Part shown: positions 61,923 through 63,255 of the stretch, one piece after another
How the letters are laid out: each line of letters begins with the position of its first letter
Position numbering within the stretch: position 1 is the stretch's first letter
NCBI GenBank assembly: GCA_048938005.1
Contig: JBHLMQ010000003.1
Span: 96,001 to 160,000, forward strand
Direction: 5' to 3'
Length of the DNA stretch: 64,000 bases
Source of the DNA: Promethearchaeota archaeon
Lineage (GTDB): Archaea > Asgardarchaeota > Lokiarchaeia > Sigyniarchaeales > SOKP01
Translations under genes and position numbers: made by a program
Notes under the pieces: model-generated
Told to the model about the DNA's origin: nothing
The model's input: only the letters and a program-made list of their open reading frames with translations
The model's database searches: none

Positions 61923-63255
61923 TTAAAAAACAATATCTTCTAATACAATAGTTTCCTTTCTATCTGGTCCAATTGAAACCATGGCAATTTCTGTTTTAAG
62001 TATTTCTCCAATTGCGTGAATATATATTTTCATTGTCTCTGGAAGAGCATCATATCCTTTTCCTGCTATATCTAACCATTCTTCCCTAGTCTTTTCTTCC
62101 CAACCTTTAAAACTTCTATAAATTGGTGTACAATTTTCAATTATTTCTGATTGGATTGGCCAACTTTCAAGTTTATTACCTTCTAATTTATAACCAATAC
62201 AAATATTTATTGGATTAACTCCTTGAAGTGCGTCTAAAAGTGTAATTATAACTTTATCAACACCATTAATCATTATTCCATATTGAATATTGAAAAGGTC
62301 TAACCATCCAACTCTTCGTGGTCTTCCAGTTACGGTACCATATTCGTTACCTTGTTCTCTAATTTTATCAGCAGTCTCATTAAATAATTCTGTTGGGAAT
62401 TTTCCTTCACCAACTCGAGAAGTATACGCCTTAACAATTCCAATTATTTTATCAATTTTTTTAGGTGGAATTCCAGTACCAGCAGAAATTCCTAATGCGT
62501 TCGCATTAGATGATGTACCATAAGGGTACATACCAAAATCAAGCGATAATAGATTTCCTTGAGCTGCTTCAAAAAGAACTTTTTTTCCAGAATCTATAGC
62601 TCTATTCAAATAGTAGGCTGTATCAATTACATAAGGTTTAAGTTGCTTCCCATACTCTTTATACTCTTGATATATTAGTTCAAAAGACTCATCCCAATCA
62701 GAATCATATGCTTTTATAACTTTCTTTTTGATTTCAAAGAGGTTTTCCAATTTTGGTTTAAGAAATTCGGGATGTATTAAATCAAATACTCGGATGCCCC
62801 AGCGTGCAGCTTTATCAGAATATGTGGGACCAATACCTCTTTTGGTTGTACCGGCACTATACTTCCCCTTTGATTCCTCTTCTAGCCCATCTAATACCCG
62901 ATGGAAGGGAAAGATTACATGTGCGGTTGAACTTAATTTTAGATTTATCTTTTTATCAAGTTTTTTCAAATGATCTATTTCTTCAATTAAGACTTTAGGA
63001 TCAACTACACAACCATTAGCTATAACTCCTTCTTTTTCTAAGGGAGCTCCAGATGGTATAAGTTTAAATTTATATTTAATTCCATTAGCATTTATTGTAT
63101 GACCCGCATTATTTCCACCATTATATCTTACGACAATATCAGCCTTCTGTGCTAAAAAATCAACGAATTTGCCTTTGCCTTCGTATAGGGTTAATTTGCG
63201 ACGTGCAAAACTAAGCTCCCCACGAAAGGCCAATAACGGCAATAGTATTACTCAT
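61923..63255 (-). CDS. purA: Adenylosuccinate synthetase, split by a 31-nt putative intron; join(63255-63216, 63184-61923), 433 aa
   Basis: Exon 1 [13 protein letters not shown] plus exon 2 gives WGDEGKGK; also [35 protein letters not shown]. Confidence 0.93.
63185..63215 (-). other. Putative 31-nt BHB/BHL-type mRNA intron in purA
   Basis: CUUUCGU GGGG AG^C UUAGUUUUGC-ACGUC-GCAAAUUAA CCCU AU^A CGAAGG; excision restores the GAC (Asp) codon and the frame. Confidence 0.85.

Follow-up and report, generated by a model that had tools for sequence, protein, structure and literature searches.

The window analysed here is a stretch of 64,000 nucleotides from a Promethearchaeota archaeon (assembly GCA_048938005.1, contig JBHLMQ010000003.1, positions 96,001 to 160,000), whose metagenome-assembled genome of 3.72 Mb comprises 101 contigs with 29.8% G+C and is estimated to be 95% complete and 7% contaminated. 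On its minus strand, at 61923..63255, lies purA, the gene for adenylosuccinate synthetase, in which an insert of 31 nucleotides (63185..63215) splits the Asp codon of the WGDEGKGK motif as G|AC. We propose that this insert is very probably an archaeal bulge-helix-bulge (BHB), or tRNA-type, intron of the purA pre-mRNA, removed by the splicing endonuclease EndA and followed by joining of the exons by the ligase RtcB. The parts of the gene are as follows.

63216..63255, minus strand: purA exon 1, from translation; ATG, 12 further codons and the G that forms base 1 of the Asp14 codon
63185..63215, minus strand: putative BHB-type intron of 31 nucleotides, in phase 1 within the catalytic Asp codon, from the sequence and comparison with relatives
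61923..63184, minus strand: purA exon 2; the AC that completes the Asp codon, then 419 codons (EGKGK...EDIVF) and a stop codon; matches PF00709

Read on the minus strand, the insert (CTTAG...CCCTAT) sits between TGG GGA G and AC GAA GGC, and its excision yields a contiguous PurA of 433 amino acids with the motif WGDEGKGK. If the insert is retained, Gly13 is followed by one Ala codon and then TAG, so that the product ends at 14 residues; if both cuts are shifted by one base, the motif becomes GYE or GAE instead of GDE. The open reading frame (ORF) listed mechanically at this locus (61923..63242, minus strand, TTG start, 439 amino acids) has a meaningless N-terminus, while the ATG at 63255 opens the PurA N-terminus in a frame other than that of exon 2. 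The first-pass annotation of the window had pointed to the odd N-terminus, the ATG in another frame, the 31-nucleotide interruption of GDEGKGK and the normal 433-residue product of exact excision, and our reading of the sequence and of its spliced and unspliced translations bears out all four.

Exon 2 alone matches the Pfam family Adenylsucc_synt (PF00709) with 509 bits (cut-off 27) over profile positions 10-416 of 416, and the first nine profile positions come from exon 1, only once the insert is removed. The P-loop GDEGKGK with its essential Asp thus exists in the spliced reading only, where it is identical to the motif of 31 intron-less loci of the same genus, all of which also begin with the same 13 N-terminal residues. 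The split residue was correctly named as the catalytic P-loop Asp: its counterpart (Asp13 of E. coli) is essential and 99% conserved (PMC12884076, cited, like the other sources below, from the passages available to us). A PF00709 profile search of the genome, at its estimated 95% completeness, found no second purA, this gene being the sole match; an intact copy elsewhere alongside a decaying one here, which had been named as what would undo the interpretation, is thus not what we found, and the substitution rates given below show no decay. Since the insert splits the catalytic Asp codon of the only purA, the mRNA most likely needs tRNA-type cutting and rejoining before translation. The genome also has purB, whose product acts directly after PurA in the pathway. 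This gene was considered as a possible split gene and rejected, as its two pieces lie at contig ends (G000:C63, 104993..105270, and G000:C89, 20983..22083) that overlap by exactly 77 nucleotides, the mark of an assembly break in an intact gene.

The predicted fold of the pre-mRNA around the insert has the following elements.

63223..63228, minus strand: 5' strand (CUUUCG) of the outer exon-exon helix, pairing with 63178..63183
63218..63221, minus strand: 5' strand (GGGG) of the central helix; exonic, with two bases from the end of the Trp12 codon and two from the start of that of Gly13, pairing with 63187..63190
63215..63217, minus strand: 5' bulge AG|C, with the required junction 63216|63215 after its second nucleotide
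63191..63214, minus strand: inner stem-loop h', UUAGUUU(U)GC, loop ACGUC, GCAAAUUAA
63187..63190, minus strand: 3' strand (CCCU) of the central helix; intronic, from fold and alignment
63184..63186, minus strand: 3' bulge AU|A, from the centroid structure, with the required junction 63185|63184 after its second nucleotide
63178..63183, minus strand: 3' strand (CGAAGG) of the outer exon-exon helix, from fold and alignment

The 55-nucleotide stretch around the insert folds at -19.9 kcal/mol (z = -3.6), as well as one of 200 shuffles; for an 81-nucleotide stretch, z is -2.55 and 5 of 200 shuffles fold as well. The centroid structure contains the outer exon-exon pairing, the 4-base-pair helix GGGG/CCCU, the 3-nucleotide 5' bulge AGC, the inner stem-loop and a 3' bulge AU. 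One extra U (63222) separates the outer helix from the central helix, the relaxed outer side already noticed in the first-pass annotation. The 3' bulge has three nucleotides (AUA) only if the pair between its A and U63222 opens; otherwise it has two, or becomes a 1x3 internal loop. Counted over some 7.8e8 site-length combinations in the genome, a loose BHB descriptor, which asks for 4+4+4 pairs and allows the outer helix three registers, has 40,287 matches. Where the protein has already fixed both site and length, this corresponds to a chance of about 5e-5.

To place the insert among relatives, we read the same site in other genomes of the family. The genus comprises 54 species genomes, 49 of which have a purA match, and the N-terminus could be read in 48 genomes, at 49 loci in all. 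Eighteen of these loci carry an insert (30 nucleotides in one, 31 in 15 and 32 in two), and the other 31 read TGG GGN GAY GAR without interruption. Family-wide, inserts of 30, 31 or 32 nucleotides occur at exactly this site of purA in at least 30 of 135 genomes, distributed over 4 of 13 genera; the other purA N-termini that were read (42 loci) are all intact at the insert site, and no interruption occurs in any of the eight purA loci taken from the order's other families. Within the genus, all 17 full-length insert alleles give 433 amino acids after excision, the eighteenth ending at a contig end, and all 18 stop after 14-23 residues if unspliced. Eleven alleles from the three other genera (g14, g16 and g17) were read, of which ten give 434-436 amino acids after excision and one, in genome G094, needs a second excision. 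Removal of the insert therefore leaves an open frame of 433-436 codons in 27 of 28 full-length insert alleles, with G094 as the 28th.

A covariance model (R1) built from the 18 sites of the genus finds one copy per genome in that genus, only in purA and at just those 18 sites. Across the family it finds the element in 29 of 135 genomes: 18 of 54 in this genus (g1), 9 of 42 in g14, 1 of 10 in g16, 1 of 6 in g17 and none of 23 in the nine other genera. Genome G101 of g17, which the model missed, has the insert on direct reading and is the 30th, so that the model count is a lower bound. In a class-wide draw, R1 matched none of the 24 genomes from six other families; two weak matches of the class search, in G082 and G093, lie outside purA. 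Three weak extra matches in the genus search have E values of 0.0025, 0.04 and 0.41, the best of them (in G046) being antisense within a long ORF. A mobile intron family was considered and rejected, since R1 finds one site per genome, always in purA.

Two further loci met in this survey are recorded here. Genome G049 has two intron-less purA copies on different contigs (L049 and L058), which may reflect contamination or duplication, and the purA of G131 (L141, on G131:C73) lacks the segment that would align with query residues 37-102.

Ratios of nonsynonymous to synonymous substitution (dN/dS, pairwise Nei-Gojobori estimates) are closely similar in the two kinds of allele. For exon 2 the ratio is 0.09 in insert-bearing alleles versus 0.088 in intron-less ones, and the 13 exon-1 codons give 0.18 versus 0.144. 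Both exons have thus been kept as coding sequence in the lineages with the insert, which argues against a pseudogene and implies that exon 1 must be joined to exon 2 in frame.

The predicted structure is conserved as well. When the 18 genus sequences are aligned, 88.9% of cells are paired under the named structure, versus 35-50% after a slide of the partners by 1-3 columns; both sides have changed in six pairs (14 cells), and the covariation score is reached by none of 500 shuffles, a comparison in which related sequences can outscore shuffles without any structure. In alignment A2, the central helix is paired in 97% of cells and all five pairs of helix 3, the inner stem, have changed on both sides. 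The interiors of the introns are almost wholly different between lineages (for example UUAGUUUUGC... in the window's own allele, AAUGAUUG/CAAUCAUU in g17, and the type found in G041), and the helices persist. Across the 30 species, the central helix has all four pairs in 28, the 5' bulge is AGN, three nucleotides long, in all 30, a U:A pair at the 3' bulge is possible in all 30, and the inner helix beside the 5' bulge has at least two base pairs in 28 and at least four in 20. In every one of the 30 species, as the first-pass annotation had noted for the window's own allele, each junction that the protein demands has two nucleotides of its bulge before it. This is the point at which EndA cleaves, with bulge residue 2 ahead of the cut and residue 3 behind it, by the rule that the annotation had invoked (PMC2738675). 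Of the fold that it had drawn, the stems and bulges around GGGG/CCCU stand, and the outer exon-exon stem does not hold as a general feature, having at least two base pairs in 13 of the 30 species. Because fewer than half of the species have the outer helix and HB plus the inner helix is nearly constant, the conserved core is HBh' rather than the full hBHBh'. The relatives thus supplied both the intron-less alleles and the compensatory changes that had been proposed as a check.

Coding positions take part in this conservation. One pair of the outer helix covaries at synonymous sites, from U:A to C:G (CUU/GAA to CUC/GAG), in four species, and the Gly13 codon is GGA in all 18 insert alleles of the genus versus 7 of 31 intron-less loci. 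The predicted RNA fold, on this evidence, constrains coding bases.

The genome encodes the enzymes that such an intron would need. Two genes have EndA domains. The alpha subunit, encoded on G000:C26 (198 amino acids), has as its best solved relative the catalytic alpha subunit of Aeropyrum pernix (3p1z_B, E 1.8e-35). The catalytic Tyr, His and Lys are all retained, and a K-P-R of this subunit lines up with K44-P45-R46 in a loop specific to Crenarchaea, which confers broad substrate specificity (PMC3241643). The second protein, encoded on G000:C56 (205 amino acids), has Ser at the position of the catalytic His of the Methanocaldococcus enzyme, which identifies it as the structural beta subunit. 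Genes for RtcB and Archease are adjacent (G000:C57:59968..61731), on opposite strands in a convergent orientation and 36 nucleotides apart. Asgard archaea have an (alpha-beta)2 EndA with this loop, and relaxed motifs are cut only by the (alpha-beta)2-with-loop and epsilon2 types of EndA (PMC5829648). The host thus has an EndA predicted to be able to cut relaxed motifs, and a ligase.

The tRNA genes are the expected substrates of the same machinery. The program aragorn predicts 30 tRNA genes in this genome, 9 uninterrupted and 21 with introns, many of 100-160 nucleotides, which suggests that the tRNA genes are heavily and multiply interrupted and that aragorn missed several. This fits the heavily interrupted Asgard tRNA genes described in a preprint (10.64898/2026.10.13.758758), with about 2.2 intervening sequences per gene and repeated gains.

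Taken together, the anatomy of the locus, the conservation and covariation, the selection on both exons, the single copy of the gene and the presence of the enzyme genes, which are what we observed, strongly favor the claim of the first-pass annotation that purA needs tRNA-type splicing for its expression. In the proposed course of events, the exonic GGGG of the Trp-Gly codons would pair with the 3'-terminal CCCU of the intron as the transcript folds, giving a 4-base-pair helix flanked on one side by the AG|C bulge and the intronic stem-loop, and on the other by the AU|A bulge closed by exon-exon pairing. The two-subunit EndA would cut after the second nucleotide of each bulge, at 63216|63215 and 63185|63184, and RtcB, with Archease, would ligate the purA exons. 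Ligation would restore GAC, the codon of the catalytic Asp, and with it the frame of the 433-residue adenylosuccinate synthetase.

Several points weigh against this interpretation. The motif is not strict: its 3' bulge has two nucleotides, or three facing one extra U, and the minimum-free-energy fold extends the central helix to six base pairs (GUGGGG/CCCUAU), burying the 3' site. As this fold differs from the centroid, the strict BHB motif would be one of several near-equal conformers. The outer helix has fewer than two base pairs in 17 of the 30 species, in two species (G042 and G052) a G.A mismatch leaves the central helix with three of its four pairs, and two with 32-nucleotide introns (G041 and G004) have no inner helix directly beside the bulge. 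The species are related, so that counts of species overstate the independent support. No second convincing mRNA intron was found in the genome by a screen with the BHB descriptor, itself an insensitive instrument, and the purA case is to that extent isolated in this genome. In the available passages of the papers cited here, Asgard EndA is not reported as having been tested on any substrate. Finally, cleavage and ligation in the cell are the part of the account that we infer, from DNA sequence; the public sequencing runs listed for this stretch included none of RNA.

Four other explanations have to be set against splicing by EndA and RtcB. That the insert is an artefact of assembly or sequencing has almost no likelihood: the source is a metagenome-assembled genome in 101 contigs with 7% estimated contamination, yet contigs from three other sequencing runs (X2, X3 and X4), belonging to three studies, bridge the insert. 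The X4 contig (record 11) spans the whole 501-nucleotide stretch including the insert with no differences, the X2 contig (record 6) spans 63111-63265 across the insert, also with none, and the X3 contig (record 9) has a single difference at 63194, where it changes an inner-stem G.U to G:C and preserves the structure. Such near-identical contigs may reflect related sampling campaigns; homologous inserts are found in the assemblies of 29 other species as well. The presence of the insert in the DNA, another check proposed at the outset, is thereby affirmed. It is likewise very improbable that purA is a decaying pseudogene, or that the EndA cut serves only to destroy or down-regulate the transcript while AMP comes from salvage. 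The unspliced gene cannot yield an active enzyme, and cleavage of mRNAs by the yeast enzyme TSEN leads to their decay (PMC10485636), both of which would suit such a reading. Against it stand the frames that open in 27 of the 28 full-length insert alleles once the insert is removed (G094 needing a second removal), dN/dS values that match those of intron-less alleles even in the short exon 1, the single copy of purA and the retention of purB.

The other two explanations accept that a full-length protein is made. Translational recoding of an unspliced mRNA, by bypassing, frameshifting or stop read-through, has some resemblance to gene 60 of phage T4, a case of translational bypassing with a stop at the interruption and a hairpin in the gap, since here too a stop comes right after the interruption and the gap holds a hairpin. 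Early cases of the archaeal cbf5 intron were, moreover, mistaken for frameshifting (PMC2738675). We nevertheless give recoding only a very small chance. The G and the AC lie 30-32 nucleotides apart in the DNA, leaving no contiguous Asp codon for any hop, and because the Asp codon itself is split, neither bypassing nor frameshifting can restore the Asp. There is no landing codon matching GGA; the nearest GGN is Gly16, whose use would delete Asp-Glu, and no GGA or GGN landing codon precedes a GAC, as a bypass of the gene 60 type would call for. The 30-nucleotide variants (in G002 and in alleles of g14 and g17) need no change of frame, yet they contain an in-frame stop and would add ten residues to the P-loop. 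Slightly less remote, and still quite improbable, is removal at the RNA level by an agent other than EndA and RtcB, with the BHB-like fold incidental or serving another purpose. The relaxed motif leaves room for this, and the selection data demand only a full-length protein, not a particular enzyme. However, in all 30 species the protein-dictated junctions lie exactly at the canonical cut positions of the two bulges, the central and inner helices are held by covariation, and an insert of 30-32 nucleotides is far too small for a self-splicing intron; a search of 62800..63600 for known RNA families gave no Rfam match at E values up to 1. A tRNA-type intron spliced by EndA and RtcB is therefore the explanation that we prefer.

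To get a view of the history of this intron, we used a tree of the purA exon-2 protein (56 rows, quick LG+G4, rooted on the eight rows from other families, with the partial row L061 excluded), which is a gene tree and not a species tree. On this tree the insert needs six state changes, at least four of which are forced by well-supported branches, and the approximately unbiased (AU) test rejects the grouping of the 17 insert rows as one clade (p = 0.003). The introns of g1 and g14 have common sequence around the loop. The simplest account of these observations would be that the intron was gained once, long ago, and has since been lost precisely on many occasions or displaced by intron-less alleles. 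By this comparison the putative intron is an old feature of the family, patchily distributed and not confined to this organism.

One allele stands apart in this respect. G042 (L035) has an exon 1 and an intron of the type seen in G017 and G024 (L017 and L021; GGGTTAAGT TGGGGAG, without an outer helix), and its exon-2 protein groups, with weak support, with the window's own allele (L002). Such a mosaic could stem from recombination near the 5' end, or could merely mirror an unresolved tree.

The screen of the genome for other mRNA introns used the BHB descriptor to seek hits that would fuse two open frames. Such hits are in no excess over random positions (223 versus 206 internal, 868 versus 830 N-terminal). 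By motif energy, purA ranks second of 1091 candidates, and it is first of the 67 that have no early ATG in the frame of exon 2, the rest of which look like chance. Candidate C65, top overall by energy, and C8, which is zinc-ribbon-like, were rejected as read-through in another frame or weak G.U helices. The cbf5 gene of this genome is contiguous, with no intron. As the descriptor missed most of the tRNA introns predicted by aragorn, it is insensitive, and the screen does not argue against further mRNA introns.

A further candidate came from the family survey. The purA of G094, in genus g16, has, besides the first intron, a second insert of 31 nucleotides directly after the His codon of NAGH.

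L128 (G094:C126), locus about 232..262, contig about 25580..25610: second insert of G094, from the reading of its purA

Only at the junction required by the protein does this insert form all four central pairs (GGUC/GGCU), with AU|U and AA|A as its bulges and an outer helix of two base pairs; shifts of 1-3 nucleotides give at most two central pairs. Of the 121 family genomes in which purA was matched, G094 alone has such an insert, which so rests on one assembly. If it is real, both purA introns of G094 would sit at codons of catalytic residues. One could then imagine that the tRNA-splicing machinery of the family carries mRNA introns as a class, which persist, in the manner of inteins, in catalytic codons of essential enzymes because imprecise loss there is lethal. 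The cases that could be cited are the P-loop Asp in 30 species, the NAGH His of G094 and the Asp of crenarchaeal cbf5; we regard the idea as unlikely. Within the same unlikely reading, the intron could couple the expression of purA to the supply of GTP, or to the capacity for tRNA splicing, given that ligation by RtcB uses GTP and PurA is the GTP-driven entry to AMP synthesis.

The genes around purA are described for completeness. Divergent from it, a gene at 63443..64000 (plus strand) runs off the window; its protein has a match to the GIFT domain of IFT52 (E 8.5e-10) and another, short of the family cut-off, to ABC_transp_aux, and is a GldG/IFT52-like domain protein. Downstream and convergent with purA lies a gene for a predicted metal-binding protein of the DUF2284 family (61344..61904, plus strand), followed by one for a PhoU_div (DUF47) protein (60516..61178, minus strand). 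These two downstream neighbors have no obvious tie to purine synthesis or RNA splicing. A scan for bacterial-type promoters gave nothing useful, its models not being applicable to archaea.

The closest known parallel is the intron of crenarchaeal cbf5, found in Desulfurococcales and Sulfolobales, which also has a relaxed BHB motif, is spliced by a hetero-oligomeric EndA with subsequent ligation, lies between letters 1 and 2 of a catalytic Asp codon, just as the purA insert does, and has a patchy phylogenetic distribution with gain and loss, as seen here (PMC2738675). The two differ in that cbf5 encodes an RNA-modification enzyme of Crenarchaeota and purA a purine-biosynthesis enzyme of Asgard archaea (Promethearchaeota), and in that cbf5 splicing is backed by cDNA and in vitro evidence, whereas the purA case is known from its DNA alone. 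In Haloferax volcanii, the mRNA of HVO_1309 is likewise a target of the archaeal splicing endonuclease, and its splicing is seen in RNA-seq (PMC10485636). Unlike the present case, it belongs to a euryarchaeon with a homodimeric EndA. The BHB introns of Asgard tRNAs share with the purA intron the predicted machinery and the kind of motif, and the purA intron differs from them in its mRNA substrate and in a central helix formed with coding bases. Among eukaryotes, a short mRNA intron of HAC1/XBP1 is cut at stem-loops by IRE1 and sealed by a tRNA ligase (RtcB in animals), with a change of frame. The likeness to purA is that a protein endonuclease removes a short mRNA intron and a tRNA ligase seals the exons; the difference is that IRE1 is not a tRNA-splicing endonuclease and that the event is regulated by stress. 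Inteins and homing introns sit in the most conserved catalytic motifs of essential genes, where imprecise deletion is lethal. Unlike them, the purA intron would be removed at the RNA level by host enzymes, has no homing endonuclease and gives no sign of mobility in the R1 searches.

A 2023 review counts 'at least two archaeal genes', cbf5 and HVO_1309, whose mRNAs are spliced by the tRNA endonuclease, and expects more (PMC10485636). Our literature search, which did not extend to subscription journals and supplements, returned no report of a BHB intron in purA or in any Asgard protein-coding gene, and the main text of the preprint on Asgard tRNA introns, as available, has no occurrence of 'mRNA' (10.64898/2026.10.13.758758). 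On that basis, purA would be a new gene, and the Asgard archaea a new phylum, for BHB mRNA introns.

A number of consequences would follow. Standard gene callers give a wrong N-terminus for PurA in these species, as in the 439-residue ORF with its TTG start, and the same error may hide further cases. The purA intron would be a natural substrate with which to probe what the two-subunit EndA of Asgard archaea accepts, and its distribution offers a dated series of precise intron losses, useful for learning how such introns come and go. The gene concerned is that of a core metabolic enzyme, and the intron is conserved over four genera. As a third gene of this kind, if the interpretation is true, purA would mean that RNA splicing can be a requirement for protein-coding genes in those archaea that are most closely related to eukaryotes.

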